Assembly (NCBI GenBank): GCA_002310015.1
Contig: DBYQ01000058.1
Coordinates: 1 to 63,380 of the forward strand
Length of the DNA stretch: 63,380 nucleotides
From: Bacteroidales bacterium UBA1182
GTDB lineage: Bacteria > Bacteroidota > Bacteroidia > Bacteroidales > Bacteroidaceae
Direction: 5' to 3'
Every line of letters starts with the position of its first letter. Within the stretch, counting starts at the first letter, position 1. This document shows positions 1 through 44,959 of the stretch, piece after piece. A model generated the notes under the pieces. It had not been told where the DNA came from and did not search any database. It saw only the letters and a program-made list of their open reading frames with translations. The position numbers were made by a program, and so were the translations under genes.

Positions 1-509
1 AGGCTTATGTGGATAATCTTAATAAGCTGCTGCCTGGAAGCGGGCTTTCTGAGGATTTGTCGCTGGAGGAGATTGTGTGCAAGGCTAATCCGGCTGGTGG
101 CGTATCGGCCAATCAGGGGGTTTTTAATAATGCGGGGCAGATACTTAACCATAATCTTTATTTTACGCAGTTCTGCAAGGGTGGTAAGGCGCTGGCGGAT
201 GGCGCTCTCAAGGCTCAGATTGTTAAGCAGTGGGGCGGCGTGGAGGCGTTCCAAGCGGAGTTCGTGGCCAAGGGCGTGGGTTTGTTTGGCAGCGGATGGG
301 TGTGGCTGTCCCGTGATGCCGATGGATCACTCGTGATTACGCAGGAGTCGGGCGCTTCTAACCCAGTTGTGCACGGTCTCAAGCCGTTGCTTACGTTCGA
401 TGTCTGGGAGCACGCCTACTACCTTGATTATCAGAACCGCCGAGCCGCCCATCTGGATGCCCTCTGGCAGATCCTGGATTGGAGTGTGATAGAAAAACGT
501 TATAAATAG
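1..509 (+). CDS. sodB: Fe/Mn superoxide dismutase, 5' end cut by window edge
   Basis: Frame is open from the window start. Motifs NNAGQILNHNLYF, GSGWVWL and DVWEHAYYLDYQNRR are typical of Fe/Mn SOD. Stop TAG at 507-509. Confidence 0.9.
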   Translation, partial: AYVDNLNKLLPGSGLSEDLSLEEIVCKANPAGGVSANQGVFNNAGQILNHNLYFTQFCKGGKALADGALKAQIVKQWGGVEAFQAEFVAKGVGLFGSGWVWLSRDADGSLVITQESGASNPVVHGLKPLLTFDVWEHAYYLDYQNRRAAHLDALWQILDWSVIEKRYK

Positions 510-580
510 TACCATTGGGGTCTGTCCCCTTTGGTATCATTTTTGAAAAAAAGTACCAAAGGGGACAGACCCCAATGGTA
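510..580. repeat. REP doublet (two inverted units, ACCA variant)
   Basis: taccattggggtctgtcccctttggta (510-536) and gtaccaaaggggacagaccccaatggta (553-580) are perfect reverse complements separated by a tcatttttgaaaaaaa spacer. Confidence 0.9.
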
Positions 581-596
581 TCATTTTTGAGATATT

Positions 597-1049
597 ATGC
601 TGAAAGTTGGAGATAAGATGCCTCAGTTTGAGGTGGTGGACCAAGATGGTCAGGTGGTTCGGTCATCGGACTTTATAGGGAATGGCCGCAAGACGATTGT
701 GTATTTTTACCCCAAGGACAACACGTCGGGCTGCACGGCCGAGGCGTGCTCGTTCCGCGATAATTACGCAGCGCTGACGGCTGCGGGGTACAACGTGGTG
801 GGGGTTAGCAAGGATTCTGCAAAGTCGCACACGGGTTTCCGCGCCAAGTATGAGCTGCCGTTTAGGCTGTTGGCCGATACCTCTACGGAGATGCTGCAGG
901 CGTTTGGAGCTTGGGGCGAGAAGAAGATGTACGGCAAGACTGTTCTGGGCACTTTGCGCCGGACTTTTATCTTTACTGAGGATGGCATCCTGGAGCGCAT
1001 CATCGAGAAAGTTGACACCAAGAATGCTGCAGAACAGGTGCTAAAATGA
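597..1049 (+). CDS. bcp: thiol peroxidase / peroxiredoxin Bcp
   Basis: FYPKDNTSGCTAEACSFRD peroxidatic Cys motif. 150 aa. The TGA stop lies in the REP flank aaaatgataca. Confidence 0.85.
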   Translation: MLKVGDKMPQFEVVDQDGQVVRSSDFIGNGRKTIVYFYPKDNTSGCTAEACSFRDNYAALTAAGYNVVGVSKDSAKSHTGFRAKYELPFRLLADTSTEMLQAFGAWGEKKMYGKTVLGTLRRTFIFTEDGILERIIEKVDTKNAAEQVLK

Positions 1050-1120
1050 TACAATTGGGGTCAGACCCCTTTTGTATCATTTTTGAAAATAGTACAAAAG
1101 GGGTCTGACCCCAATTGTAC
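1049..1120. repeat. REP doublet (REPIN-like)
   Basis: atacaattggggtcagaccccttttgtat (1049-1077) and gtacaaaaggggtctgaccccaattgtac (1092-1120) are in inverted orientation with a catttttgaaaata spacer. Confidence 0.9.
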
Positions 1121-1132
1121 TATTTTGTGGAG

Positions 1133-1471
1133 ATGAAGGATTATTTGGATAGAATGACGGTGGAGGAGGCTCGGGTGTTTCAGACGGAGGTGCTGAACAT
1201 CGTTAGCCAGATTCCTCGCGGGAAGGTGACGACATATGGTAATGTCGCGGCCTTGGCGGGGTGGCCGAGCCATTCACGGATGGTGGGAAGGACGCTCAGA
1301 TATATGCCTGGGGCGGAATTGCTGCCCTGTCATCGGGTGGTGAATAAGGAGGGACGGACGGCTCCGGGGTGGAGTGAGCATCGGCCGTTATTGGAGGCTG
1401 AGGGAGTGCAGTTCAAGAGCAACGGGCACGTGGATATGCATCGGCATCTTTGGCATCCGGAGATTATTTGA
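1133..1471 (+). CDS. MGMT-family protein (methylated-DNA-protein-cysteine methyltransferase DNA-binding domain)
   Basis: GKVTTYGNVA and PCHRVV active-site-like motifs. ATG at 1133 chosen because the longer ORF start lies inside the REP. Confidence 0.7.
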   Translation: MKDYLDRMTVEEARVFQTEVLNIVSQIPRGKVTTYGNVAALAGWPSHSRMVGRTLRYMPGAELLPCHRVVNKEGRTAPGWSEHRPLLEAEGVQFKSNGHVDMHRHLWHPEII

Positions 1472-1484
1472 AAAGCTGACACAT

Positions 1485-2516
1485 ATGTTGTGGAGTTTGT
1501 TATTGACGTCATGTTTCATCATTCCGCCCGGCGATGAGGGGGCGGAGCTGAAGGAGCGTGATTATGGGTTCAGGACTGTGATTGAGGCCGATGTTAAGAA
1601 GGTGACGGCTCAGATGGGGAGCGGTGATTATTCGGGCATCACGTATCTGGGCGGGACGCGGTATGCGGTGGTGGATGACAAGAGGCGTGGCGGCGGGATT
1701 GTGCTGGTGGACATGGACGTTAATTTAAGCGGTAAGGTTAAGGAGGTTTCGGTGAGTGTTCCTGAGGGGACGGTTTCATCGGACATTAGCGATAGGGACA
1801 ATGAGGGGGTGGCTTATAGGGCCGGTTCTTTTGGGGCTGGGACGCTGTTTGTGAGCGCGGAGGCGGATCAGTCTATCAGGGAGTATGGGCTGGACGGGGT
1901 GCCTACGGGGCGTTTTTTAGCGGTTCCCGATGATATGGCTCGGGGCAAGATTAAGAGCAACAGGGGCTTTGAGGCGCTGACTTACAATGAGTTCACGGGG
2001 CTGTTTTGGACTACTACAGAGGATGTGTTGCTTGAGGATGCTTCTTTGGATGCCGGTCTGTTGCGGCTGCAGAGTTTCGGGGCCGATTTGCGGCCTGCGG
2101 GCAGGTTTTTGTATCAGATGGACAGGCCGATGAAGAGTGAGGCTGAGGCTGCTTTGGCGGAGTCATATGTGTTTGGGGTGCCTGCGCTGACGGCTCTCGA
2201 TGACGGGCGGCTGATCGTTTTGGAGCGTGAGGTGTTTGTGCCTAAGGGGGGCGTTTTGGGGAAGTTAAGGAAGTCATTTTGTAGGGTGAATCTTTATGTG
2301 GTGAAACCTGTTGTTGGGGCATCGGAAGTTTTGAGCAAGACGCTGATGTGCAGTTTCACGACTAAGCCGGCATCGGGCAGGTTTGCTGATTATGAGGGGA
2401 TGTGCCTGGGGCCTTTAGTGCCGGACGGGGGGCGGACGCTGATCCTGATCTCAGATTCCCAACATGGAGCCGGCGGGGTGGTTAAGGATTTTGTCAAGGT
2501 GATTGTTTTTAGGTAA
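1485..2516 (+). CDS. esterase-like activity of phytase family protein (secreted)
   Basis: YSGITYLGG, DNEGVAY, NRGFEALTYN, VLEREV and LILISDSQ blocks resemble the phytase-like esterase family. ATG at 1485 follows the MGMT stop. Confidence 0.55.
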   Translation: MLWSLLLTSCFIIPPGDEGAELKERDYGFRTVIEADVKKVTAQMGSGDYSGITYLGGTRYAVVDDKRRGGGIVLVDMDVNLSGKVKEVSVSVPEGTVSSDISDRDNEGVAYRAGSFGAGTLFVSAEADQSIREYGLDGVPTGRFLAVPDDMARGKIKSNRGFEALTYNEFTGLFWTTTEDVLLEDASLDAGLLRLQSFGADLRPAGRFLYQMDRPMKSEAEAALAESYVFGVPALTALDDGRLIVLEREVFVPKGGVLGKLRKSFCRVNLYVVKPVVGASEVLSKTLMCSFTTKPASGRFADYEGMCLGPLVPDGGRTLILISDSQHGAGGVVKDFVKVIVFR

Positions 2517-2528
2517 ATGATACAAAAG

Positions 2529-2602
2529 TGTACCAAAGGGGACAGACCCCAATGGTATCATTTTTTGAAAATAGTACAAAAGGGGTCTGACCCCAATTGT
2601 AC
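2529..2602. repeat. two REP units in direct orientation
   Basis: tgtaccaaaggggacagaccccaatggta (2529-2557) and gtacaaaaggggtctgaccccaattgtac (2574-2602). Confidence 0.9.
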
Positions 2603-2610
2603 TATTTTGC

Positions 2611-2618
2611 TATATTTG
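2611..2618 (+). promoter_or_regulatory. candidate Bacteroidetes -7 box TATATTTG
   Basis: Matches TAnnTTTG. It lies only about 6 nt before the serB ATG, so it implies a very short leader or none. Confidence 0.3.
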
Positions 2619-2623
2619 CTGAT

Positions 2624-3853
2624 ATGAAAGAGGAGCAGATTTTAATTCGGATTACGGGACAGGACCGGCCGGGACTGACGGCGGCGGTCATGGGGATTTT
2701 GGCAAAGTATGATGCTACGGTGCTGGACATCGGCCAGGCTGATATTCATAACACGCTGTCATTGGGCATTTTGATGCGTATGGACGAGATGAAGAGCGGC
2801 CTTGCTATGAAGGAGCTGCTGTTCAAGGCTACGGAGCTGGGCGTGAATATCGGTTTTTCTCCGATTAGCGACGATGAGTATGAGGATTGGGTAGGGCATC
2901 AGGGTAAGAACCGGTATATTTTGACTGTGCTGGGGCGTCAGCTTGAGGCTCGGCAGATTCAGGCAGCTACTCAAATTCTTGCTGATCAGGGGCTTAATAT
3001 TGATTCTATTCTTCGTCTTACGGGTCGGAAAAGTATTAAAAAACTTGATAAGCAGACGCGTGCTTGCATTGAATTTTCTTTGCGCGGCGAGCCGGTGGAC
3101 AGGCAGAAGATGCATGTTGAGCTGATGAAGATTTCGCAGCAGATGGAGATGGATTTCTCTTTCCAGAAGGACGATATGTTCCGCAGGATGAGGCGGTTAA
3201 TCTGTTTTGATATGGATTCTACGCTCATTCAGGCGGAGTGCATTGACGAATTGGCTGAGCGCAATGGCGTGGGTGCCCAGGTTCGCGCTATTACTGAGAG
3301 CGCGATGCGCGGTGAGATTGATTTCAAGGAGAGTTTTACTCGTCGTGTGGCGTTGCTTAAAGGACTGGATGTCAGTGTGATGCGTGATATTGCTGAGCAT
3401 CTGCCTATGACTGAGGGTGTGGACCGTCTGATGTCAGTTTTGAAGACTTGCGGGTATAAGATTGCTATTCTTTCTGGTGGATTTACGTTCTTTGGCGAGT
3501 ATCTGCAACGGCGTTATGGCATTGATTATGTGTACGCTAACGAGCTTGAGATAGGCGAGGACGGTAAATTGACCGGGCGATATGTGGGTGAGATTGTGGA
3601 TGGGCACAGGAAAGCTGAGTTGCTGCATCTGATTGCTCAGGTGGAGAAGGTGAATCTGGCTCAGACTATTGCTGTGGGCGATGGTGCAAATGCCCTGCCG
3701 ATGATCTCTGAGGCTGGTTTGGGAATTGCGTTCCATGCAAAACCGCGCGTTGTGGCCAATGCAGGGCAGAGTATCAATACCATCGGCCTTGATGGCGTTC
3801 TCTATTTCCTTGGCTTCAAGGATTCCTACCTTGGTGAGCAGGGCAAACTTTAA
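2624..3853 (+). CDS. serB: phosphoserine phosphatase SerB with N-terminal ACT-like domains
   Basis: HAD motif FDMDSTLI and GDGANALPMISEAGLGIAFHAKP. The N-terminal half is regulatory. Confidence 0.85.
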   Translation: MKEEQILIRITGQDRPGLTAAVMGILAKYDATVLDIGQADIHNTLSLGILMRMDEMKSGLAMKELLFKATELGVNIGFSPISDDEYEDWVGHQGKNRYILTVLGRQLEARQIQAATQILADQGLNIDSILRLTGRKSIKKLDKQTRACIEFSLRGEPVDRQKMHVELMKISQQMEMDFSFQKDDMFRRMRRLICFDMDSTLIQAECIDELAERNGVGAQVRAITESAMRGEIDFKESFTRRVALLKGLDVSVMRDIAEHLPMTEGVDRLMSVLKTCGYKIAILSGGFTFFGEYLQRRYGIDYVYANELEIGEDGKLTGRYVGEIVDGHRKAELLHLIAQVEKVNLAQTIAVGDGANALPMISEAGLGIAFHAKPRVVANAGQSINTIGLDGVLYFLGFKDSYLGEQGKL

Positions 3854-3857
3854 AAAA

Positions 3858-3887
3858 GGTACCAAAGGGGTCAGACCCCAATGGTAC
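3858..3887. repeat. single REP unit
   Basis: ggtaccaaaggggtcagaccccaatggtac between convergent serB and the 3887-4639 ORF. The TAG stop of the minus-strand ORF overlaps its flank. Confidence 0.9.
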
Positions 3888-4639
3888 TATTTTTTGTTGT
3901 GTTCACGCCAGAATTTGTAAAGTTCCTCTCTTTCTTGTTTTATGGTTTCAACTGATGGGACATATCCTTTATTTTCATAGTATCGGAGCATTTCATCAAG
4001 ATAGTAATGTGATTTAGATTCGGTCTCATAGTCTATCTGATTCATGAAACGGGCTTTTTCAAGCAAGAACTCACGATACCGATTGATGCGTTCAAAAAGT
4101 TCTTTCGGTTTGGTATGTATGGTGATTGATGGATTTCCACAATCTCTTGCGAAAGTGATTTCTTTAATGTAGAAATAGTCACAATCTAGTGCGGCTTTTA
4201 CAAATTCGAAAATAAGGGTGTCGCCTGGATGAGGAACGGCGGGAAGTCCGAAACTGAAAGAACATGTTCGGCCATACTCAAAACCGGAAAACAGGAAGGT
4301 GCAGAGATTTTCACCTTCTGATGCAAATAATTGTGGCTTGGAATAGTTCAATTCAAACAGATCCTTATAGATGAGTGGAAGCCATTTGTTGATATTTTGA
4401 GGTGTTTCATTCAGCCTCTCTGCAATCCATTTAATGGTTAATTCCCTCTCCCTAGCTTCGCAAATGTCAGAATACCAATATTCAGCAATCTGAATAAAGC
4501 CTTCAATTATGTGCTCGTAAGGCTTTCCCTGCCCACTCAATAACCTGAGCCAGCGCGCCTCACTAAACAGACAGAATTTGATCTGTTTGTTTTTGGGGAC
4601 GTAATTCTCCAAAGCTGGGCAATCCATCTTTAAATCCAT
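3887..4639 (-). CDS. hypothetical protein (possible HTH segment), low-GC orphan
   Basis: 250-aa ORF with no family I recognise. ELTIKWIAERLNETPQNINKWL looks helix-turn-helix-like. The DNA is visibly more AT-rich than its neighbours. Confidence 0.5.
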   Translation of the reverse strand: MDLKMDCPALENYVPKNKQIKFCLFSEARWLRLLSGQGKPYEHIIEGFIQIAEYWYSDICEARERELTIKWIAERLNETPQNINKWLPLIYKDLFELNYSKPQLFASEGENLCTFLFSGFEYGRTCSFSFGLPAVPHPGDTLIFEFVKAALDCDYFYIKEITFARDCGNPSITIHTKPKELFERINRYREFLLEKARFMNQIDYETESKSHYYLDEMLRYYENKGYVPSVETIKQEREELYKFWREHNKK

Positions 4640-4668
4640 AGTTGTAGTGTTGGTTAGTATGTTGATAA

Positions 4669-5244
4669 TCAGAATAATATCCGATATGCATCGGCTTTTT
4701 TCTCCAGGGAGAGCGGGTAGGCGCGTGAGGTGGAGGGCATGCGGTAGAAGTCTATGGGGCGGACGATGTTGTTTTGACTGATTGGAATGCTTATGTTGAT
4801 TTTGCTTCCGATGGGCGGGATGGGGCAGTTGAAGGTGCTGGCGATGACTTCTGTGGCTTTTTGGCCGGTGGTGACTATGGTGGTACAGAGGGGAATTTGT
4901 TGGAGCAGTGATGGGATATCGGTCGGCGTTATTACCTCTAGGAAGGCATCGGAGGCATTGTCTTTCAGACGGCGGATTTGGGTGGCGGTGTCGTAGAAAG
5001 CCAGTCCGTTTTGTGTGCAGAAGTCTTTTATGGCTTGCTCATTGAAGCGTTTTTCTTTGATGATGCAGAAGTGGTCTTTATCATTGAAATGTATCAGGCC
5101 GATGATGCGCCAGAAGTCGTTGATCCAGTTGGGGTAATAGAACGGCATGCTCCAGCGGTGGGGCTGGGGCGGGAAACTGCCCAGAAACAGCATCCTGGCG
5201 TTCTCAGGCAAAAATGGCTCAAACGGGTGCTGCTCTATATCCAT
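4669..5244 (-). CDS. uracil-DNA glycosylase superfamily protein (hypoxanthine/deoxyinosine-DNA glycosylase-like)
   Basis: N-terminal LFLGSFPPQP...YYPNWINDFW pattern resembles the UDG-like hypoxanthine-DNA glycosylase family. Confidence 0.5.
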   Translation of the reverse strand: MDIEQHPFEPFLPENARMLFLGSFPPQPHRWSMPFYYPNWINDFWRIIGLIHFNDKDHFCIIKEKRFNEQAIKDFCTQNGLAFYDTATQIRRLKDNASDAFLEVITPTDIPSLLQQIPLCTTIVTTGQKATEVIASTFNCPIPPIGSKINISIPISQNNIVRPIDFYRMPSTSRAYPLSLEKKADAYRILF

Positions 5245-5265
5245 CGCTCACAAAGATACAAAATG

Positions 5266-5337
5266 ATACAAAAGGGGTCAGACCCCAATTGTATCATTTT
5301 TGAAAATAGTACAATTGGGGTCTGACCCCTTTTGTAC
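5266..5337. repeat. REP doublet immediately upstream of the RAYT-like gene
   Basis: atacaaaaggggtcagaccccaattgtat (5266-5294) and gtacaattggggtctgaccccttttgtac (5309-5337), in inverted orientation. Confidence 0.9.
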
Positions 5338-5345
5338 TTTTTTTA

Positions 5346-5353
5346 TATCTTTG
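5346..5353 (+). promoter_or_regulatory. candidate -7 box TATCTTTG
   Basis: TAnnTTTG match 27 nt upstream of the ATG at 5380. Confidence 0.45.
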
Positions 5354-5379
5354 CGATATAATCAATTTGTTTGCAAACC

Positions 5380-6192
5380 ATGGCACGAAAATTAAGATTG
5401 GCCAGCGATTCTGGCATTTACCATGTGATTCTGCGCGGGGTGAACCGGCAGGACATTTTCGAGAACGAGAAAGATTTTCTCAAGTTTTTGAGTCTGATGG
5501 AGCGCTTGGCGTTTCCGGTGGATGAGACTGGGCATCGGGTTCCTCCTTTGCTGGTCATTTACGCTTATTGCCTGATGCCTAATCATGTGCATCTGCTGCT
5601 TAGGGAACAGCCCGGAATGTTGGTATCGGACGCAATAAAGTGGATATCAGGCACTTATGCGGGTTATTTTAATTTAAAGTACGAGCATGTTGGGCACCTT
5701 TTTCAGGACCGTTTCAGGAGTGAGGTGGTGAATGATTGGGAGTATTTTGTGACTTTGTTGCGGTACATTCATCAGAATCCGGTGGCTGGAGGGCTGGCGG
5801 ACAATGTGAGGTATTACAGGTGGAGCAGTTGGCGCGAGTATGATCCGGAGATGGTTTGTGATGTTCCGATATGTGCGACTCAGGCTGTTTTCACTAAGAT
5901 TTCGTTCGATGCGCTGGAGGAATTGGTTGATACGCCGCTGCCAAAAACGCAGAGAATTCTGGATTTTGATAGCGATTCCGGGAGGCGGGTGACCGATGAG
6001 AGGTTGCGTGAGTATATTAAGGCGGAGTTTGGGATTGCGGAAGTGCCTGCTATTCAGCATCTTGAGAAGGAGAAACGGAATGAGATTGTAAAAAAACTGC
6101 TGGAGTTTTGTGGAAATGTGATGCAGATTTCTCGCGTGACCGGTATCAGCCGCGGGGTTATCAGCAGGCTCAATAGAGCAATTGGGGTCTGA
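5380..6192 (+). CDS. IS200-like Y1 (HUH) transposase, REP-associated tyrosine transposase (RAYT)-like, with C-terminal HTH
   Basis: HUH motif in YCLMPNHVHLLL and catalytic Tyr context LLRYIHQNPV. C-terminal NVMQISRVTGISRGVISRL looks like an HTH. No TnpB gene or IS ends seen. The last codons and the stop lie inside a REP unit. Confidence 0.8.
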   Translation: MARKLRLASDSGIYHVILRGVNRQDIFENEKDFLKFLSLMERLAFPVDETGHRVPPLLVIYAYCLMPNHVHLLLREQPGMLVSDAIKWISGTYAGYFNLKYEHVGHLFQDRFRSEVVNDWEYFVTLLRYIHQNPVAGGLADNVRYYRWSSWREYDPEMVCDVPICATQAVFTKISFDALEELVDTPLPKTQRILDFDSDSGRRVTDERLREYIKAEFGIAEVPAIQHLEKEKRNEIVKKLLEFCGNVMQISRVTGISRGVISRLNRAIGV

Positions 6193-6325
6193 CCCCTTTT
6201 GCATCATTTTTTGAAAAATAGAGCAATTGGGGTCTGACCCCAATTGCACGTTTTTTGTATATTTGCGTGATGAATTCGAGTAAAATAGTACAAAAGGGGT
6301 CTGACCCCAATTGCACCAATTGCAC
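6176..6325. repeat. three REP units downstream of the RAYT-like gene
   Basis: gagcaattggggtctgaccccttttgc (6176-6202), gagcaattggggtctgaccccaattgcac (6221-6248) and gtacaaaaggggtctgaccccaattgcac (6288-6316), followed by a duplicated caattgcac. Confidence 0.9.
6258..6265 (+). promoter_or_regulatory. candidate -7 box TATATTTG
   Basis: TAnnTTTG match between REP units, upstream of manA. Confidence 0.35.
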
Positions 6326-6332
6326 ATATCCG

Positions 6333-7355
6333 ATGCTGTTTGAGCCGAACCTGCACACGGTGGTGTGGGGCGGGGAGCGGTTGTGCCGATGGAAGGGGCT
6401 TCCGGAGCAGGACCATGTGGGCGAGAGCTGGGAGGTGAGCGCTGTAGAGAGTTCGCCTTCAGTTGTTGCTAATGGTTCATGGACAGGGAAAACACTTCCG
6501 GAGGTGGTGGCATCGGCCCCAGAGGAGATTCTGGGCAAGGCTGTGGCTAGGCGTTACGGCGGACGGATGCCTCTGCTGGTGAAGTTTATCGACGCACGGA
6601 ATGATCTGAGCATTCAGGTTCACCCCAATGATGAGATGGCTCTGCGCGAGCATAACAAGCTGGGTAAGAGCGAGATGTGGTATGTTTTGGATGCTGAGCC
6701 GGGGGCTTGTATTTATGCTGGTTTCAAGAAGAAGCTTGGGGCCGATGAGTACAAGCGGATGGTGGAGGATGGGACTATCACTGAGGCACTTGCGCGGCAT
6801 GAGGCGCATGCGGGTGATGTTTTTTACATTCCGGCGGGGCGTGTGCATGCCATTTGCTGTGGAATATTATTGGCCGAGATTCAGCAGTCATCGGACGTAA
6901 CTTATAGGATATTTGACTATAACAGGTTGGGGCTGGACGGCAAGCCGCGCGAACTCCATACTGCCTATGCTGCTCAGGCACTTAACTACAAGGTGGAGCG
7001 GAAATACAGGACTGATTATGCGGTGCGGAATGACCGGGCGAACCTGATTATGGAGTCTAAGTTCTTTAGCGCCCGCGTGACGGAGGTGGATCATGAGTTT
7101 CATCGGAATCTGCTTAAATACGACAGTTTTATCATTACGATGTGCCTCAAGGGCGATTGTGTGATTAAGGTGCGTGCTACTGGTGATGAGGTGATTTTGA
7201 AGGAGGGGTTCAGTTGCTTGATTCCGGCGGCGGTTGCGGACTATGATATCAGGCCTGTTGGGGGTTCCTGCAAGGTTTTGGATGCGTTTATTGATAATCA
7301 GCGGGGAGGTTTGATGAATAGGATTCATCGGCTTTTCCACAAGAACAAATATTGA
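6333..7355 (+). CDS. manA: mannose-6-phosphate isomerase, class I
   Basis: GESWEVS, PLLVKFIDARNDLSIQVHPND, GKSEMWYVL, AGRVHAI and SSDVTYRIFDYNR. The start is uncertain: the ATG at 6270 would read through a REP unit in frame. Confidence 0.85.
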   Translation: MLFEPNLHTVVWGGERLCRWKGLPEQDHVGESWEVSAVESSPSVVANGSWTGKTLPEVVASAPEEILGKAVARRYGGRMPLLVKFIDARNDLSIQVHPNDEMALREHNKLGKSEMWYVLDAEPGACIYAGFKKKLGADEYKRMVEDGTITEALARHEAHAGDVFYIPAGRVHAICCGILLAEIQQSSDVTYRIFDYNRLGLDGKPRELHTAYAAQALNYKVERKYRTDYAVRNDRANLIMESKFFSARVTEVDHEFHRNLLKYDSFIITMCLKGDCVIKVRATGDEVILKEGFSCLIPAAVADYDIRPVGGSCKVLDAFIDNQRGGLMNRIHRLFHKNKY

Positions 7356-7370
7356 AAATTAAGCAAAATG

Positions 7371-7445
7371 ATACCATTGGGGTCTGTCCCCTTTGGTATC
7401 ATTTTCAAAAAAAACAGTACAAAAGGGGTCTGACCCCAATTGTAT
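7371..7445. repeat. REP doublet
   Basis: ataccattggggtctgtcccctttggtat (7371-7398) and gtacaaaaggggtctgaccccaattgtat (7417-7445), inverted. Confidence 0.9.
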
Positions 7446-7466
7446 CATTTTTTAGAGAAAAGAGAT

Positions 7467-8516
7467 ATGGCAAATCATGTGGTAATTATGGCGGGGGGTA
7501 TCGGGAGTAGATTCTGGCCCCTGAGTACTCCGGAGTTTCCTAAGCAATTTATTGATATTCTGGGTTGTGGACGGTCGCTGATTCAGCTGACTGTGGACCG
7601 GTTCAAGGGTATTTGCCCATCGGAAAACTTTTGGGTGGTGACTAACAAGGATTACGTGGATATTGTTAAGCAGCAGATTCCTGGTATTCCTTTAAAGCAT
7701 ATTTTAGCTGAGCCAGCGGCGCGAAATACGGCTCCGTGCATTGCCTGGGCGTGCTGGAGCATTAAGGAGGAGGATCCTGATGCAAATGTTGTCGTTACTC
7801 CCAGCGATGCGGTTGTAATGAACCCTGAGGAGTTCAGGCGCGTGATATCGGGCGCATTGGAGTTTACATCGGGCCACGACTTTATCGTGACTATCGGAAT
7901 CAAACCGAATAGGCCGGAAACTGGGTATGGTTATGTAAAAACGGTACAAAAGGGGTCTGACCCCAATTGTATCATTTTGGTGGAGGAGTTTAAGGAGAAG
8001 CCGGATCTGGAGACGGCTAAGAGGTATTTGGCGGATGGAAATTACCTTTGGAATGCGGGGATTTTTGTGTGGAATGTGAAGACGATTACCGATTCTATCA
8101 GGGCTTATAAGCCGATTTTGGCGGGGCAGATGGATAAAATGATACAAAAGGGGTCTGACCCCAATTGTACTGTTTTGGAGATTTTCCCGACTTGTGAGAA
8201 GATTTCTATTGACTATGCGGTGATGGAGCCGGCTGCTGCTGAGGGGAAGGTTTATACTTTTCCGGCGGATTTTGGGTGGAGCGATCTGGGGAACTGGCAG
8301 TCGCTGCATGAAAAGTTGCAGAAGGATGCGGATAATAATGCATCGGTGGGTAATGTACATTTCTATGAATCAAGCAATTGCGTGGTTCATGTTGAGGACG
8401 CCAAGAAGGTTGTGATTCAGGGATTGGACGGGTATATTGTATCGGAAAAGGGGGGACAAATTCTGATTTGCAAGCGTAGCGAGGAGCAGCGCATTAAAGA
8501 GTTTGGAGCAAAATGA
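7467..8516 (+). CDS. manC: mannose-1-phosphate guanylyltransferase
   Basis: VIMAGGIGSRFWPLS, ETGYGYV, FKEKPDLETAKRYL and SIDYAVMEP. The ORF contains two REP units in frame. The TGA stop lies in a REP flank. Confidence 0.85.
   Translation: MANHVVIMAGGIGSRFWPLSTPEFPKQFIDILGCGRSLIQLTVDRFKGICPSENFWVVTNKDYVDIVKQQIPGIPLKHILAEPAARNTAPCIAWACWSIKEEDPDANVVVTPSDAVVMNPEEFRRVISGALEFTSGHDFIVTIGIKPNRPETGYGYVKTVQKGSDPNCIILVEEFKEKPDLETAKRYLADGNYLWNAGIFVWNVKTITDSIRAYKPILAGQMDKMIQKGSDPNCTVLEIFPTCEKISIDYAVMEPAAAEGKVYTFPADFGWSDLGNWQSLHEKLQKDADNNASVGNVHFYESSNCVVHVEDAKKVVIQGLDGYIVSEKGGQILICKRSEEQRIKEFGAK
7944..7972. repeat. REP unit inside manC coding sequence
   Basis: gtacaaaaggggtctgaccccaattgtat is identical (29/29) to the intergenic copy at 7417-7445. 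It is translated as VQKGSDPNCI. Confidence 0.9.
8142..8170. repeat. REP unit inside manC coding sequence
   Basis: atacaaaaggggtctgaccccaattgtac with the aaaatg/tgtttt flanks seen at intergenic copies. It is translated as IQKGSDPNCT. Confidence 0.9.
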
Positions 8517-8690
8517 TGCAATTGGGGTCTGACCCCTTTTGCACTTGTCATTTTCAAAAAAAACAGTACAAAAGGGGTCTGACCCCAATTGTATCATTTT
8601 CAAAAAAAAACAGTGCAAAAGGGGTCAGACCCCAATTGCACCAATGGCACATGCAAAAAGAGTACCAAAGGGGTCTGACCCCAATGGTAC
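8517..8690. repeat. cluster of four REP units
   Basis: Units at 8517-8544 (inverted form) and at 8566-8594, 8613-8641 and 8662-8690 (direct form), including GTGC and ACCA variants. Confidence 0.9.
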
Positions 8691-8715
8691 TTTTTTAATT
8701 TTAAATAATTATGAT

Positions 8716-8764: not shown

Positions 8765-11461
8765 ATGAAGAAAATTCTGGCTTGTATTGCATTCTTGCTG
8801 CCGCTGGTGGTTTACTCACAGAGTGCATCGATGATTTCAATGGCTCGCAATGAGCTGCAGAAACGTGGACTTGAAGAGACTGAGGTACGCGCGCGTCTGC
8901 TTGAAAACGGTATTGACGTGGATAATATTCCGCCGACTGAGTATCAGAACTATCAGGGTAGAGTTACGGCTATTATTAACCAGATGCAGGCCGAGAAGGC
9001 TCAGGCTTCATCTAATGCTACTCCTGCGGCCCCGGCCGGTGAGAGTGCCATTGCTGCAGCTGCAAGCGAGGCTCTTACTCCGGAGGATTTCCCGCAGACG
9101 ACTCAAGGTGAGGCTGCCGCAGAGGAGGCTCTTGAGGAGGCTCTCAAAGAGAATCATGTATCACCAACGGCTGGTGATGACATTTACGGCCACTCACTGT
9201 TTACAGGCAAGTCACTGGATGTGTATCGCACTACAGACGGTGCCCAGGCTCCTGAAACCTACGTTATGGGTGAGGGCGATGAGGTGCATATCTCAATATT
9301 CGGTTCGTCACAGACTGAGATTCATCAGCGTATTGGTGCCGATGGTTCAATACAACCTGCTAACAGCTCCAAGATATTCCTTAAGGGTATGACCCTGGAG
9401 CAGGCCCGTCAGGCTATCAGAAGTAAGCTGGCTTCATCTTACTCATTCCGTCCGGACCAGATTGCGGTTACCATTACTACGGCACGTACCGTGATGGTGA
9501 ACATATACGGTGAGGTAGGTGTTCAGGGCGGTTTTACACTCTCAGCACTTAACTCTGCATTCAATGCCCTGGCTGCAGCCGGCGGTCCTACAAGAATAGG
9601 TTCCGTACGTAACGTTCAGTTGAGCCGCGGTGGCAAGACAAGCCGTCTGGACCTGTACAGGTATATGACCAAGCCCGATCCCAATGCACAGTATGACCTG
9701 CAGAACGGTGATGTGCTGTTTGTGCCGGTGGCTGACAACATTGTAACTATTGAGGGTGCAGTAAACCGCCCCATGCGTTATGAGATGGTGGCTGGTGAGA
9801 CTGTAAAGGACCTGATACGCTATGCCGGTGGCGTGACATACAACGTTTATCCTGATTACCTGCAGATAGAGCGCCAGGAGGGCGGTGAGATAAAGATCCT
9901 GGAGTATGAGCTGGATAATGTGCTTTCAGGATCACAGAGGATAGAGCTCAAGAACGGTGATGTGGTAAGGGTACGCACATCGAACAAACCGCTTGAGAAC
10001 TACGTATCAATTAAGGGTGATGTGTTCTACGGAGGCCGATATGCGATTGAGAATAACGGTACCCTGCAGACTCTTATTGAGAAGGCTCAGCCCCGTTACA
10101 CAGCTATGACCGATTTTGTGTTTGTAGAGCGTACACGTCCCGACGAGACTGTTGAGGTGCTCACCATACCGTTCCCCGGCGTAAACGGCAATCCGGATTT
10201 TGAACTGCAGCCAAGAGATGCAGTGCTTGTTAAGGAGCAGTCAACATACCGTGACCTGGCAACAATCTCGGTAAGCGGTCAGGTGCGTGAACCTTTCTCA
10301 CGTCAGTTTGGTGTGAATGACAGGATGACAGTGGAGCAGGCTATAGGTTATGCAGGCGGTCTTAAGCCCAGTGTATTCCCTGTAGCTTACATATTCCGCC
10401 GTGACCTGACCAATCCCTCAAAACAGGAGTACCTGCGTATATTGCTGGATAGGGATGGCGATACCCTGCTGCAGCCCGGTGACCAGTTGAAAATATATGA
10501 CAACACCACTTATACAAACGTAGGTGAAGTCCGCGTGAGCGGTGCCGTAAAAAACCCGTTTGGAGTAGAGTTTGACAAGTCACTGACAGTGCATGACATG
10601 CTTGAGATGGCAGGCGGATTAGAGGTAGGTGCAGCATACGACCGCGTTGAGGTGTTCCGTATCAACATCTCTACAAAGGATGAGGTTAAACTTGACCAGA
10701 TTACCCTGACTGTTGATGACCAGTACAATCTGGTGGGTAACTCAGAATTCCAGTTGCAGCCGTATGACCATATAGTTGTACGCCGTACTCCTAACTTTAC
10801 CATGGGACGAACGGTTGAGGTTAACGGCCGCGTAAAATATCCGGGTGTATATGTACTGGAGGATAATAAAACACAGTTGTGGGAGATTATCCAGATGGCA
10901 GGCGGCCTGCTTGATGATGCAGCCCCGTATGCACGCCTGTTCCGTACTTATCGTAACCGCGGTAGTATAGGACTGGACCTTAGGGAGGTGAAGAGTAACA
11001 AGGGAAGACTCAAGTCTGACCCCATACTGATGGATGGTGACGTAATCAACATAACACGTATGGAGAACGTTGTTTCAATACGTGAGACCGGAACCAGAAT
11101 GGCTCAGTATGTACCTGAGGAGTATGCATCAAGCCAAAAGACAATCCTGTTCCAGGGTAAGCACAATGCCGCCTGGTATATACGCCATTATGCCGGCGGA
11201 TTCCAGAAGGCTGCCGATAAGAACAGCGTTACGGTTACGTACCCCAACAACCAGACAGAATCAACCAAACGCGGATTCCTTTGGATACGCCGTTATCCTA
11301 AAGTTGAATCAGGCGGTATGATTACACTGCGCATTGATGATGAGAAACGTGAGAAGATAGAGAAGCCTAAGGAGAAGATTGACTGGGGTGATGAACTGAG
11401 AACATCTCTCAGTACACTCACATCGGTTATATCATTGGTAATTCTTATTGACAAACTGTAG
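8765..11461 (+). CDS. large polysaccharide export protein with multiple SLBB-type repeats
   Basis: Signal peptide followed by a repeated G-D-x-(I/V/L)-x-V pattern (GDEVHISIFG, NGDVLFVPV, NGDVVRVR, PGDQLKIY, DGDVINI), as in Wza/SLBB export proteins. 898 aa. Confidence 0.7.
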   Translation: MKKILACIAFLLPLVVYSQSASMISMARNELQKRGLEETEVRARLLENGIDVDNIPPTEYQNYQGRVTAIINQMQAEKAQASSNATPAAPAGESAIAAAASEALTPEDFPQTTQGEAAAEEALEEALKENHVSPTAGDDIYGHSLFTGKSLDVYRTTDGAQAPETYVMGEGDEVHISIFGSSQTEIHQRIGADGSIQPANSSKIFLKGMTLEQARQAIRSKLASSYSFRPDQIAVTITTARTVMVNIYGEVGVQGGFTLSALNSAFNALAAAGGPTRIGSVRNVQLSRGGKTSRLDLYRYMTKPDPNAQYDLQNGDVLFVPVADNIVTIEGAVNRPMRYEMVAGETVKDLIRYAGGVTYNVYPDYLQIERQEGGEIKILEYELDNVLSGSQRIELKNGDVVRVRTSNKPLENYVSIKGDVFYGGRYAIENNGTLQTLIEKAQPRYTAMTDFVFVERTRPDETVEVLTIPFPGVNGNPDFELQPRDAVLVKEQSTYRDLATISVSGQVREPFSRQFGVNDRMTVEQAIGYAGGLKPSVFPVAYIFRRDLTNPSKQEYLRILLDRDGDTLLQPGDQLKIYDNTTYTNVGEVRVSGAVKNPFGVEFDKSLTVHDMLEMAGGLEVGAAYDRVEVFRINISTKDEVKLDQITLTVDDQYNLVGNSEFQLQPYDHIVVRRTPNFTMGRTVEVNGRVKYPGVYVLEDNKTQLWEIIQMAGGLLDDAAPYARLFRTYRNRGSIGLDLREVKSNKGRLKSDPILMDGDVINITRMENVVSIRETGTRMAQYVPEEYASSQKTILFQGKHNAAWYIRHYAGGFQKAADKNSVTVTYPNNQTESTKRGFLWIRRYPKVESGGMITLRIDDEKREKIEKPKEKIDWGDELRTSLSTLTSVISLVILIDKL

Positions 11462-19168: not shown

Positions 19169-21598
19169 ATGACTCTGAGGGAACTTAAGATAGGTGAGAG
19201 TGCTGTGATTGCCTCGGTTGGAGGTGAGGGGGCACTGAGGCAGCATTTTCTGGATATGGGGTTGCTGCCGGGCGTGGAGGTTAAGCTTTTGAAGTTTGCT
19301 CCGATGGGTGATCCGATGGAGCTTCTGGTTCGCGGATACACTCTTTCTCTCCGTCTTGAAGAAGCATCTCAAATTACAGTTGACGCACCGGATGGCAGCC
19401 AACAGCCCGAAAAAACAGTACCAAAGGGGTCTGACCCCAATGGTACTGTTTTTGAAAAAAAGGTACCATTGGGGTCAGACCCCTTTGGTACTGTTTTGGT
19501 CGATTTTGGGTATAATTTGTCTTTGCATGAGCATAACTCTCATCCGGGTTTGGGTGAGGCTGGTAAGTATCATGATGCTACTCATGAGAATGCGGTTCCT
19601 AAGGGTACGGTGTTGAGGTTTGCTTTGGCCGGTCAGCAGAATTGCGGCAAGACTACCTTGTTTAATCAGCTTACGGGTTCTAATCAGCATGTGGGTAATT
19701 TCCCGGGTGTGACTGTAGATAGAAAGGATGGGCAGATTAAGGGGCATCCGGATACTCTTGTCACAGACTTACCTGGTATATATTCTTTATCGCCTTACAC
19801 GCAGGAGGAGACGGTTTCACGCCAGTTCATTATTGAGCAGAAGCCTAACTGCATTATCAATATCGTCGATGCTACAAACATTGAACGCAACCTGTATCTG
19901 ACGGTTCAGCTCATGGAGCTGGGTGTGCCTATGGTGCTGGCTCTCAATATGATGGACGAGCTGACGGGTAATGGCGGATCGGTCCGCGTGAATGAGATGG
20001 AGCGAATCCTGGGTATTCCGGTGGTTCCGATATCGGCCGCAAAGGGCGAGGGTATCAAGGAGCTTGTGGAGCACGCCATTCATGTGGCTGAGTATCAGGA
20101 GGTTCCGGCCAGGACCGATTTCTGCACAAAGGATGATCACGGGGGTGCTGTTCACCGTTGCCTGCACAGCATAATGCATCTGGTTGAGGACCACACCGAA
20201 AGGGCTGGCATTCCGGGCCGATTCGCAGCCGGCAAGCTTGCTGAGGGCGATGCTCAAGTGCTTGAACAGCTACAACTTACACAGAACGAGAAAGAAACGA
20301 TGGAACACATAATCCTGCAGATGGAGGAGGAGCGTGGGATGGACCGCGCGGCTGCCATTGCAGATATGCGTTTCTCGTTTATTGAGCGCCTTTGCTCGCA
20401 GACGGTTGTCAAGCCGCAGAAGAGCAAAGAGTATATAAGGAGTCGCCGCATTGACCGCGTTCTGACCGGCCGATGGACAGCAATTCCAATCTTCCTGATA
20501 GTGATGTGCCTGGTGATATGGCTCTCAATCGATGTGTTGGGTGCACCGCTGCAGGATTGGCTTGACCAGCTGATTCAGGGCCTGGCAGGCATCTGTGTGG
20601 CTGGTATGGAGAAGGCCGATATTTCACCTGCAATCATATCGCTTGTTGAGGATGGCATTTTTGGCGGCGTGGGAAGCGTGCTGAGCTTTGTGCCTATCAT
20701 CATAATCCTGTTCTTCTTCCTTAGTCTGATTGAGGACAGCGGATATATGGCACGTATCGCGTTTGTGACCGATAAGCTGCTGCGTAAACTGGGTCTGTCG
20801 GGTCGTTCTATCGTGCCGTTGCTCATCGGCTTTGGCTGTTCTGTTCCGGCGGTTATGGCCACTAGAACGTTGCCATCGGCCCGTGACAGAAAGATGACCA
20901 TTCTGCTCACTCCGTTTATGAGCTGCAGCGCCAAGATTCCTATTTACGGATTCTTTACCAATGCGTTTTTCCCGGGCAAGGGCGGTCTGATTCTGGCCGG
21001 CTTGTACCTGCTGTCGATATTTGTAGGCGTGATTGTGGCGCTGGTGACCAAACTTTTCCGCAAGAATTACGTGGCTGCGCCGTTTGTGATGGAGCTGCCC
21101 AATTACCGCATGCCGGGACTCAAGAATGTGAGCCATCTGCTTTGGGACAAGACGAAGGACTTTGTGCAGAGGGCGTTCACGGTGATATTCGTGGCGACGA
21201 TCGTGATTTGGCTGCTGCAGACGTTTGATTTCCGATTCAATATGGTGGAGAACGGCGAGGGTAGCATGATGGCCTGGGTTGCTGGCGTGCTGGAGCCGCT
21301 GTTCCGTCCGCTGGGCCTTGGCGATTGGCGCATTGTTACCTCTTTTGTAAGCGGTTTCCTGGCTAAGGAGAGCGTGGTTGCTACGATGGAGGTGCTTGGC
21401 GTGACCGAGTCGCTGACTGTTATTACCGCTGTTCCGATGCTCATATTTAGCCTGCTCTACACGCCTTGCGTTGCTGCAATCAGCAGCGTTCGCCGCGAAC
21501 TTGGTGACAGGTGGGCAATCTATGTCGTAATCTTCCAGTGCGTCATCGCCTGGGTTGTGGCTTGGTTTGGTTATTTAATAGCACAGGCAGTATTATGA
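19169..21598 (+). CDS. feoB: ferrous iron transporter, FeoA-FeoB fusion
   Basis: The N-terminal FeoA domain ends ...LRLEEASQITV. FeoB G-domain LAGQQNCGKTTLFNQLTG and NFPGVTVD, followed by the polytopic membrane part. A REP doublet sits in frame in the linker. Confidence 0.9.
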   Translation: MTLRELKIGESAVIASVGGEGALRQHFLDMGLLPGVEVKLLKFAPMGDPMELLVRGYTLSLRLEEASQITVDAPDGSQQPEKTVPKGSDPNGTVFEKKVPLGSDPFGTVLVDFGYNLSLHEHNSHPGLGEAGKYHDATHENAVPKGTVLRFALAGQQNCGKTTLFNQLTGSNQHVGNFPGVTVDRKDGQIKGHPDTLVTDLPGIYSLSPYTQEETVSRQFIIEQKPNCIINIVDATNIERNLYLTVQLMELGVPMVLALNMMDELTGNGGSVRVNEMERILGIPVVPISAAKGEGIKELVEHAIHVAEYQEVPARTDFCTKDDHGGAVHRCLHSIMHLVEDHTERAGIPGRFAAGKLAEGDAQVLEQLQLTQNEKETMEHIILQMEEERGMDRAAAIADMRFSFIERLCSQTVVKPQKSKEYIRSRRIDRVLTGRWTAIPIFLIVMCLVIWLSIDVLGAPLQDWLDQLIQGLAGICVAGMEKADISPAIISLVEDGIFGGVGSVLSFVPIIIILFFFLSLIEDSGYMARIAFVTDKLLRKLGLSGRSIVPLLIGFGCSVPAVMATRTLPSARDRKMTILLTPFMSCSAKIPIYGFFTNAFFPGKGGLILAGLYLLSIFVGVIVALVTKLFRKNYVAAPFVMELPNYRMPGLKNVSHLLWDKTKDFVQRAFTVIFVATIVIWLLQTFDFRFNMVENGEGSMMAWVAGVLEPLFRPLGLGDWRIVTSFVSGFLAKESVVATMEVLGVTESLTVITAVPMLIFSLLYTPCVAAISSVRRELGDRWAIYVVIFQCVIAWVVAWFGYLIAQAVL
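19418..19491. repeat. REP doublet inside the feoAB coding sequence
   Basis: gtaccaaaggggtctgaccccaatggtac (19418-19446) and gtaccattggggtcagacccctttggtac (19463-19491). Translated as VPKGSDPNGTVFEKKVPLGSDPFGTV. Confidence 0.9.
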
Positions 21599-21732: not shown

Positions 21733-21805
21733 TACAAAAGGGGTCAGACCCCAATTGCATCATTTTTGAAAAATAGTGCAATTGGGGTCTGACCCCTTTT
21801 GTATC
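21732..21805. repeat. REP doublet between convergent genes
   Basis: atacaaaaggggtcagaccccaattgcat (21732-21760) and gtgcaattggggtctgaccccttttgtat (21777-21805). Confidence 0.9.
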
Positions 21806-44887: not shown

Positions 44888-44959
44888 ATACAATTGGGGA
44901 CAGACCCCTTTTGTATCATTTTCGAAAATAGTACAAAAGGGGTCTGACCCCAATTGTAT
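44888..44959. repeat. REP doublet
   Basis: atacaattggggacagaccccttttgtat (44888-44916) and gtacaaaaggggtctgaccccaattgtat (44931-44959), inverted. Confidence 0.9.

Follow-up and report, generated by a model that had tools for sequence, protein, structure and literature searches.

The window analyzed here is a stretch of 63,380 nucleotides from Bacteroidales bacterium UBA1182 (contig DBYQ01000058.1), and our subject is a family of repetitive extragenic palindromes (REPs), two units of which lie in frame inside manC, the gene for a monofunctional mannose-1-phosphate guanylyltransferase (GDP-mannose pyrophosphorylase, GMP). Shortly downstream of manC comes a Wza-like gene for polysaccharide export; on the other side of manC stands manA, encoding a phosphomannose isomerase (PMI), and beyond manA a gene that resembles those of REP-associated tyrosine transposases (RAYTs) (Table 1). 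An earlier note on this DNA had described a REP unit within the uninterrupted manC open reading frame (ORF), read as VQKGSDPNCI between the GYGYV and FKEKPD blocks, and both the ORF and its translation bear this out: the unit at what we call site 1 yields the residues V160-QKGSDPNC-I169, preceded by GYGYV (aa 153-157) and followed by FKEKPD (aa 175-180). The same note had called this the first copy, correctly, as a second in-frame core lies at 8142-8170; this site 2 is 198 nt (66 codons) downstream of site 1 and shares its orientation and phase. The junction peptides of the window ManC are GSDPNCIILVEEFK at site 1 and GSDPNCTVLEIFPTCEK at site 2, a variant example being GSVPNGIILVEEFK. Four of the six frames of the REP are open, and in the phase that is translated the GGGG-N5-CCCC core specifies Gly-X-X-Pro-Asn.

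Table 1. Positions in the window of manC, its two embedded REP units and the associated genes and repeats.
Feature	Position (strand)	Size	Remarks
manC, monofunctional mannose-1-phosphate guanylyltransferase	7467..8516 (+)	349 aa	
REP unit, site 1 in manC	7938..7978 (+)	41-nt hairpin	core 7944-7972; encodes K158-L171 (KTVQKGSDPNCIIL)
REP unit, site 2 in manC	8136..8176 (+)		core 8142-8170; encodes K224-L237
RAYT-like Y1 (HUH) transposase	5371..6192 (+)	273 aa	1.3 kb upstream of manC
manA, type I phosphomannose isomerase	6333..7355 (+)		between the RAYT-like gene and manC
REP inverted pair, 5' side of the RAYT-like gene	5266..5337		
Three REP cores, 3' side of the RAYT-like gene, upstream of manA	6184..6316		at 6184, 6229 and 6296
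Extragenic REP pair between manA and manC	7371-7399 and 7417-7445		second unit a 100% identical twin of site 1
Four extragenic REP units directly 3' of manC	8516..8690		at 8516, 8566, 8613 and 8662
REP inverted doublet in the FeoA-FeoB linker	19418..19491 (+)		in ORF 19169-21598; translated as TVPKGSDPNGTVFEKKVPLGSDPFGTV

The identity of the embedded sequence as a repeat is established by its other copies. The 29-mer GTACAAAAGGGGTCTGACCCCAATTGTAT at 7944-7972 recurs with 0 mismatches at 7417-7445, 8566-8594 and 44931-44959, and when up to 3 mismatches are allowed it has 19 matches in the window as against 0.00 expected from shuffled sequence. Its GC-clamped core, GGGGTCWGWCCCC, is found at 28 sites where dinucleotide shuffles lead us to expect 0.11, and 20 of these 28 cores fall within the first 8.7 kb (window 1-8700), around the RAYT-like gene. 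The earlier note had also stated that the identity of 7944-7972 and 7417-7445 takes in their flanks, aaaac(a/g) and catttt, and this holds: 7937-7979 and 7410-7452 agree at 42 of 43 nt, with the lone difference in AAAAAC[A/G]GTAC...GTATCATTTT. Chance or a native motif as the source of the 29-nt unit is ruled out by the shuffles together with the REP-free orthologues described below. The 29-nt core is an imperfect palindrome, and the hairpin has an outer A4/T4 stem that brings the extended unit to ~41 nt; folded as DNA the REP hairpin has an energy of -8.4 kcal/mol (z = -3.0), while for the in-ORF hairpins as RNA we computed -15.1 kcal/mol (site 1) and also -12.1 kcal/mol. Two sub-variants, ACAAAA...TTGT and ACCAAA...TGGT, coexist in the window.

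The family shares several hallmarks with REPs. It is a short (20-40 nt), multicopy, imperfect palindrome; copies flank the RAYT-like gene in the manner of a REPtron, an arrangement that recurs in related loci (L001-L009); and inverted doublets of the REPIN/BIME type are frequent, with a spacing of 43-46 nt (509/553, 1049/1092, 2530/2574, 5266/5309, 7371/7417, 19418/19463, 21732/21776 and 44888/44931). The GTAG or CGTC end tag of the REP super-families is absent from these units, which start with [G/A]TAC and finish with GTA[T/C]; GTAC is one base away from GTAG and is itself palindromic. Nor is the family extragenic throughout, given that the copies at 7944 and 8142 and the doublet 19418/19463 lie inside ORFs. 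The remaining 24 cores are extragenic or overlap stop codons. It is worth recording how closely some of them abut coding sequence: the manC stop codon (8514-8516) overlaps the first base of the REP at 8516, the stop codon TGA of the RAYT-like ORF forms the loop of the REP at 6184-6196 (GGGGTC-TGA-CCCC), ORFs 9-509 and 597-1049 terminate exactly at REP starts, and the C-terminal ~15 codons of an M24 aminopeptidase ORF (21760-23187, minus strand) overlap the REP at 21776-21804.

The protein that houses the two units is a GMP. The manC ORF matches PF00483 NTP_transferase at 4e-38 and the GDP-mannose pyrophosphorylase of Thermotoga maritima (2X5S) at 5e-63 in phmmer, and the ManC model matches 2X65 in Foldseek (1.6e-24, TM 0.66-0.69). 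In addition to this homology to solved GMPs, the G-x-G-x-R-(F/L) loop and the GYGY and F-x-EKP motifs are present, and these motifs are invariant in 63 homologues; the TIGR01479 score is under the cut-off solely because the C-terminal PMI domain is absent. Since the majority of REP frames are open, the manC ORF (7440-8516) and the manA ORF (6255-7355) as listed are prolonged at their 5' ends across REPs. The true manA start is probably near 6333, the listed ORF from 6255 crossing a REP, and the annotation of several database homologues (358-380 aa) seems to include spurious N-terminal extensions of this sort. An antisense ORF at 7704-8360 (minus strand, 218 aa) runs through both manC REPs (…NDTIGVRPLLY…) and has similar counterparts in relatives; most likely it is no gene but a by-product of codon bias and of the open frames in the REPs.

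For comparison we used 80 related loci from metagenome-assembled genomes (MAGs) of uncultured rumen and gut Bacteroidales, which come from at least five independent projects (RUG, RGIG, UBA, T1900..., ruminal_MAG). REPs are present at both manC sites, with identical junctions, in 11-12 genomes (the window, L001-L009, L014 and L046), site 2 being modified in L006 and L046. With the REP columns masked (318 codons), dN/dS between the window and 10 REP-bearing genomes is 0.05-0.10; dS lies at 0.2 in the comparison with L001 and at 0.75-1.2 in the rest. More than 20 REP-bearing homologues, which stem from many metagenomes and whose clusters hold up to 124 sequences, have an unbroken full-length manC ORF. 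Judged by these comparisons manC is functional and under strong purifying selection, and the view of the earlier note that the reading frame was kept despite the repeat is upheld. Since both inserts are kept at dS of up to ~1.2, the embedded units have persisted, or have been renewed, over near-saturating synonymous divergence.

Low dN/dS across the REP-bearing genomes excludes both a pseudogene and an assembly artefact. If manC were broken or decaying, the frame through the REPs would be fortuitous, an idea to which the four open REP frames lend themselves and which is illustrated by the spurious ORFs that cross REPs in the window (the antisense ORF and the N-terminal extensions of manA and manC). 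Against it, dN/dS is 0.05-0.10 in every comparison, the catalytic motifs are invariant and there are the more than 20 full-length REP-bearing homologues; this possibility, which the earlier note had itself named as one that would overturn its reading, is effectively refuted on such evidence and has a very small chance of being right. Slimmer still is the chance that short reads were mis-joined at REP copies to give a chimeric manC. The metagenome-like context and the very high REP density would favor such an error, but the same junctions appear in independent MAGs of at least five projects, manC on either side of the REPs aligns collinearly with 2X5S and the REP-free orthologues, and a repeat of 29-41 nt is shorter than the usual read and k-mer lengths.

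How the units came to be accommodated is indicated by the orthologues that lack them. Among the 120 closest manC homologues (71-95% identity, 334-403 aa), length varies at sites 1 and 2 only, differences in start and stop calling aside. REP-free homologues read GYGYVK-AVAGNQDIKA-VEAF at site 1, or have AVPVKDADMEIKA in that slot, and DKM-LATGQVD-EIFP at site 2; the corresponding segments of the window are TVQKGSDPNCIIL and IQKGSDPNCTVL. In the nearest REP-free relatives, L010 and L016, site 1 is AVPVKDA[KD]MEI[QK]A, and the residue count from GYGYV to FKEKP is equal to that of the window. The change in length that comes with the REP is then 0 (against L010 and L016) to +3 aa (against the AVAGNQDIKA type) at site 1 and +5 aa at site 2. 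L010, REP-free at site 1, carries an insert at site 2 only. The loops of T. maritima GMP at these two places are similar in length, unrelated in sequence (EIGEELEEGVHK; VDPRNFEELK) and free of any repeat element. Equal or near-equal loop length in REP-free relatives points to replacement, not addition: as the alignments have it, the REP with its 3' flank ATCATTTTG (I-I-L) took the place of the native loop and was not added to it. The earlier note had stated that the protein 'gained, or had replaced' a segment, and it is the second half of this statement that stands; gain is contradicted by the loop lengths in the orthologues. The ~12-14 residue segment is not absent from them, as the note had suspected it might be. 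An unrelated native loop of similar length is found in its place, and this loop is not homologous to the REP peptide, a homology that would have spoken for a native origin. A pure insertion of 12-14 residues is rejected, as the loops of the nearest REP-free relatives are (nearly) equally long.

An AlphaFold2 model of ManC, made with 63 homologues in the alignment (mean pLDDT 73, pTM 0.73), agrees with the loop location that the earlier note had expected for the segment. Site 1 is modeled as a loop (160-169) between strands 155-159 and 170-177, which would put it at the turn of a beta-hairpin whose tip leads into the EKP sugar-phosphate motif, and site 2 as a loop (226-233) between helices 216-225 and 234-242. 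From this secondary structure and the natural variability of the positions, both segments are probably surface-exposed, and in the model the DNA palindrome coincides with a protein turn.

A strict association links these inserts to the RAYT-like gene. Its product matches Y1_Tnp (PF01797) at 1e-12, above the cut-off, and the translation contains both the HUH motif (NHVH, aa 71-74) and the motif with the catalytic tyrosine (YIHQNP, aa 132-137). The best NCBIfam match is NF047646 REP_Tyr_transpos at 53 bits (3e-14), under the cut-off of 80 bits, and a search of PDB sequences returned marginal IS200-family TnpA matches (E ~0.2) and no solved RAYT. The protein fits the signature NH[LIV]H / YIH[QN]NP and the Bacteroidetes host range of TnpA-REP subclass 2.6, with the WQ motif reading FQ here; its assignment to that subclass, made by motifs and host, is provisional. 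Past the Y1_Tnp core (aa 16-136) it has a C-terminal extension of ~130 aa with a helix-turn-helix-looking tail (…KKLLEFCGNVMQISRVTGISRGVISR…) and no Pfam match. There is one RAYT-like copy in the window, and RAYT-manA-manC synteny is seen in 13 related loci (L001-L010, L015, L017 and L018), the RAYT proteins being 56-94% identical. Upstream sequence of 3 kb or more is available for 63 loci; the RAYT gene and a manC hairpin insert are both present in 12 of these and both absent from 51, with no discordant case (Fisher test 4e-13, phylogeny ignored). Among the 51 are L011, L013, L016 and L019, which have kept manA-manC synteny and have neither the RAYT gene nor REPs. The simplest reading is strong local insertion pressure near the RAYT gene, with selection keeping those in-frame, stop-free inserts that fall in permissive loops.

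The embedded units change together with the non-coding copies around them. In the ~20 kb examined per relative, both in-ORF units of a genome share one variant, and that variant dominates the extragenic copies of its locus. It is ACAAAA-GGGGTCTGACCCC-AATTGT for both in-ORF units of the window, ACCAAA-GGGGTCTGTCCCC-AATGGT for L001, GGGGACTGTCCCC for L002, L004 and L006, CAATTGGGGCCTGACCCC for L003 and L007, and ACCAATGGGGCCTGACCCCAATGGT for L008, L009 and L014. The copies at site 1 (S1) and site 2 (S2) are on average 1.1 nt apart within a genome and 4.5 nt between genomes, a difference reached in 0 of 20,000 label permutations, and the in-ORF copies differ by 3.15 nt from the extragenic copies of their own locus and by 4.85 nt from those of other loci (p = 5e-5). 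The flanks, in contrast to these cores, are specific to the site: column 5 is C in every S1 and T in every S2 copy, and on the 3' side S1 is followed by TCA and S2 by CTG, CCG or CGG, except in L003, L008 and L009, whose S2 has an S1-type flank. A pattern in which cores co-vary while flanks are conserved site by site is what short-tract conversion or replacement of units leaves behind, and not what repeated insertion de novo does; the sequences point to local concerted evolution of sites 1 and 2 with the neighbouring extragenic copies.

It could be argued instead that insertion was recurrent and independent, the variant of each genome having been freshly inserted into the same two permissive loops and the older copies lost with no conversion at all; the two loops would simply be the sole non-lethal insertion spots near the RAYT gene. 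Doublets with other junctions in L012, L015, L017 and L018, the site-2-only insert in L010, tandem copies in the homologues P0020, P0036, P0040, P0046 and P0076, the differences among genomes in copy number, junctions and phase in the feoAB linker, and the incongruence of REP variants with the manC tree would all be expected under this scheme. We nevertheless consider it unlikely, as the canonical clade has identical junctions, orientation and phase in 11-12 genomes and the per-site flank signature (C or T in column 5; TCA or CTG 3') is kept across genomes, so that every lineage would have had to combine, at both sites, a nucleotide-exact re-insertion with the simultaneous and precise loss of the prior copy.

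Changes between variants are radical in the REP peptide (D/V, K/L/M, and Q...C to P...G), with DNA pairing preserved, and the constraint is therefore on the nucleic acid, not on the peptide. Pair 11-31 switches from A-T to C-G, and the compensatory cells number 7 as against 2.8 expected, a value reached in 2 of 500 shuffles. Covariation across the in-ORF copies as a whole is modest, with 3 pairs showing double changes and a score that was reached in 52 of 500 shuffles; the tracking of variants is stronger evidence than this formal covariation. A further possibility is exaptation, in which the hairpin would be useful in the manC mRNA or DNA, through translational pausing, RNase protection or internal attenuation, or would act as a switch, the direct copies permitting an in-frame 66-codon deletion that cuts GDP-mannose for the adjacent polysaccharide-export locus. 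The RNA hairpins are stable (-15.1 and -12.1 kcal/mol), they are retained over dS ~1 with compensatory stem changes, and the direct repeats lie exactly 198 nt apart in a gene just upstream of the Wza-like export gene, all of which would suit a useful hairpin. Conversion from neighbours, however, explains REP retention equally well, REP-free relatives with the same manA-manC synteny manage without hairpins, and no 66-codon deletion allele is found among the 120 homologues and 80 loci; a role of this kind seems to us quite improbable.

Taken as a whole, the evidence makes it likely that a RAYT-associated REP replaced two surface loops of ManC in an ancestor of a clade of rumen Bacteroidales, that the replacements were tolerated, and that the cores were later homogenized with their neighbours. 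We infer a single ancestral insertion per site: in the ancestor of this uncultured clade, two surface connections of ManC that vary naturally would each have received one REP unit in place of most of the native loop. The inserts may have survived for three reasons, namely that the net length change was a multiple of three, that the phase in use has no stop codon, and that Gly-X-X-Pro-Asn would make a hydrophilic, turn-forming peptide. The REP peptide would on this account be neutral at the protein level, carried along as a tolerated passenger and not selected as a feature of the enzyme. The embedded units would then have escaped decay by short-tract gene conversion or transposase-mediated exchange between nearby REPs, through which the cores would stay REP-like and shift with their extragenic neighbours as the flanks remain unchanged.

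Several observations weigh against this account or limit its reach. The extragenic copies of L008 are mixed and mostly unlike its in-ORF copies, and the REPs in the feoAB linker of L004 do not carry the dominant variant of L004; homogenization is therefore incomplete. Strict genome-wide homogenization is rejected on these two exceptions and on the presence of two sub-variants in the window, and with ~20 kb per relative a 'dominant variant' is a locally dominant one. A neighbor-joining tree of manC, which carries no support values, puts L007 with L010 and L011, both REP-free at site 1, which leaves the single origin of each insert short of proof. Independent inserts with other boundaries or phases are seen at the same manC loops in L010, L012, L015, L017 and L018, so that insertion may have recurred. 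The permutation and Fisher tests ignore phylogeny, and several of the genomes are closely related. Surface exposure, finally, is read from secondary structure and a moderate pLDDT (63-71).

A bolder version of the homogenization step is that REPs at fixed addresses, the manC pair included, are actively overwritten by the dominant local variant with length, flanks and frame preserved. We put this forward tentatively and think it more doubtful than not. The route would be very short-tract conversion, or else the RAYT would cleave the hairpins at their feet and exchange strands there. If true, in-ORF copies, whose orthology is pinned by the frame, would be natural reporters of REP renewal without transposition.

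In-frame REPs of this family are not confined to manC. ORF 19169-21598 encodes a FeoA-FeoB fusion (FeoA, aa 1-72; FeoB_N, aa 150-302), and a whole doublet is translated in its linker. The feoAB linkers of L003, L004, L009 and L046 contain one or two REP units with differing junctions. A fixed translation phase is rejected as a rule, since feoAB of L046 reads YKRGQSPIA and site 2 of L012 reads KGDGSIWPL. More distant lineages (L010, L012, L015, L017 and L018) and many metagenomic homologues have independent inserts in the same two manC loops, made up of one, two or as many as four hairpins and belonging to variants of their own.

Inserts of another kind, low-complexity or tandem-like (for example SELPIDSQLSTFNSQLN, SQLSNSTLTTDSKLSTLNSKL and NENENENENEDENEN), occupy these loops in L055 (Xylanibacter ruminicola KHT3, ~10600-10700), L021, L045, L049, L050, L066 and L070; one of the carriers is a cultured strain. 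The loops therefore tolerate many kinds of insertion. Dispersed repeats were considered for L055 and for L021, L045 and L066 but were not demonstrated, the inserts resembling low-complexity, tandem-like expansions. A REP-free subclade of homologues (P0100-P0120) has a conserved site-2 segment, VPANGQQPTAKV, that looks vaguely like a decayed REP peptide (VPNGTVPNGTV) and is possibly an old, fixed REP remnant.

The manC locus offers an unusually clean case: a well-understood enzyme with a solved homologue, two units in one gene and a third case in feoAB, an adjacent RAYT-like gene, empty-site relatives with the same synteny, and at least 11 genomes that retain the inserts. The reading frame fixes the junctions, and the orthology of the embedded units is therefore unambiguous; units pinned in this way expose a joint change of core and neighbours that is hard to see for extragenic REPs. 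The locus provides a practical handle on REP homogenization and on the co-evolution of RAYTs and REPs in Bacteroidales, an order in which systems of this type have barely been described. There is a consequence for annotation as well, in that proteins of the MAGs compared here have repeat-derived loops and spurious N-terminal extensions that run through REPs.

In the classical REP/REPIN-RAYT systems (Nunvar 2010, 2013; Bertels & Rainey 2011; Ton-Hoang 2012), REPs are extragenic by definition and carry GTAG. The present locus is like them in that a Y1 HUH gene is flanked by cognate palindromes with many dispersed copies, often in inverted pairs ~44 nt apart; unlike known RAYTs, the protein here is longer (273 aa, with the C-terminal extension) and falls under the NCBIfam RAYT cut-off. 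Orthologous RAYTs flanked by different REP classes have been described in related pseudomonad strains (Nunvar et al. 2013, PMC3686654), and here too the REP variants around orthologous RAYTs change from one related genome to another. For subclass 2.6 of Quentin et al. 2018 (PMC6006769), which is dominated by Bacteroidetes and corresponds to RAYT group 5 of Bertels 2017, the flanks were described only as 'atypical secondary structures'. The GDP-mannose pyrophosphorylase of T. maritima (PDB 2X5S/2X5Z/2X60/2X65) shares its enzyme family and fold with ManC, and the REP sites align to its existing loops.

Rickettsia palindromic elements (RPEs) are the classical in-frame palindromic insertions (Ogata et al. 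2000; PMC10969869), and the earlier note had compared the manC unit with them. The comparison is apt, as an analogy, for a mobile palindrome that lies in frame in a functional gene and adds or replaces a peptide segment tolerated at the surface. It does not extend to size, as RPEs are ~100-150 bp long and encode conserved peptides of 30-50 aa, in alpha-proteobacteria and with no adjacent RAYT, whereas the manC unit has 29-41 nt, encodes 10-14 aa and has no sequence relationship to them. By its size and its host the unit is not itself an RPE.

The closest precedent, rather than RPEs, is the set of translated intragenic REPs described by Di Nocera, De Gregorio & Rocco 2013 (BMC Genomics 14:522; PMC3733652), where they occur as singles or dimers and some ORFs are hit twice. 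The likeness is considerable: in both cases RAYT-type short palindromes of an otherwise extragenic family are translated in frame within ORFs, the proteins are full length, and homologues are shorter or different at that point. Those families are tagged GTAG or CGTC, their reported hosts include Opitutus, Rickettsia and Thauera, and the genes they enter are enriched for DNA repair and replication, whereas the manC family starts with [G/A]TAC and is found in manC and feoAB of rumen Bacteroidales. In-ORF orthologous copies that co-vary with extragenic neighbours are not reported in the portions of Di Nocera 2013 drawn on here. Our literature search found no report of in-ORF REPs co-varying with their neighbours and nothing specific on REPs within Prevotella or Bacteroidales genes, and the REPORTH preprint names conversion merely as a future use of the tool. 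Translated REPs, then, are already known; the informative addition here is that embedded copies change together with their non-coding neighbours. Beyond the known systems, the manC case provides evidence that embedded units persist under purifying selection, that they strictly accompany a RAYT-like gene close by, and that units pinned by the frame evolve in concert with local copies.

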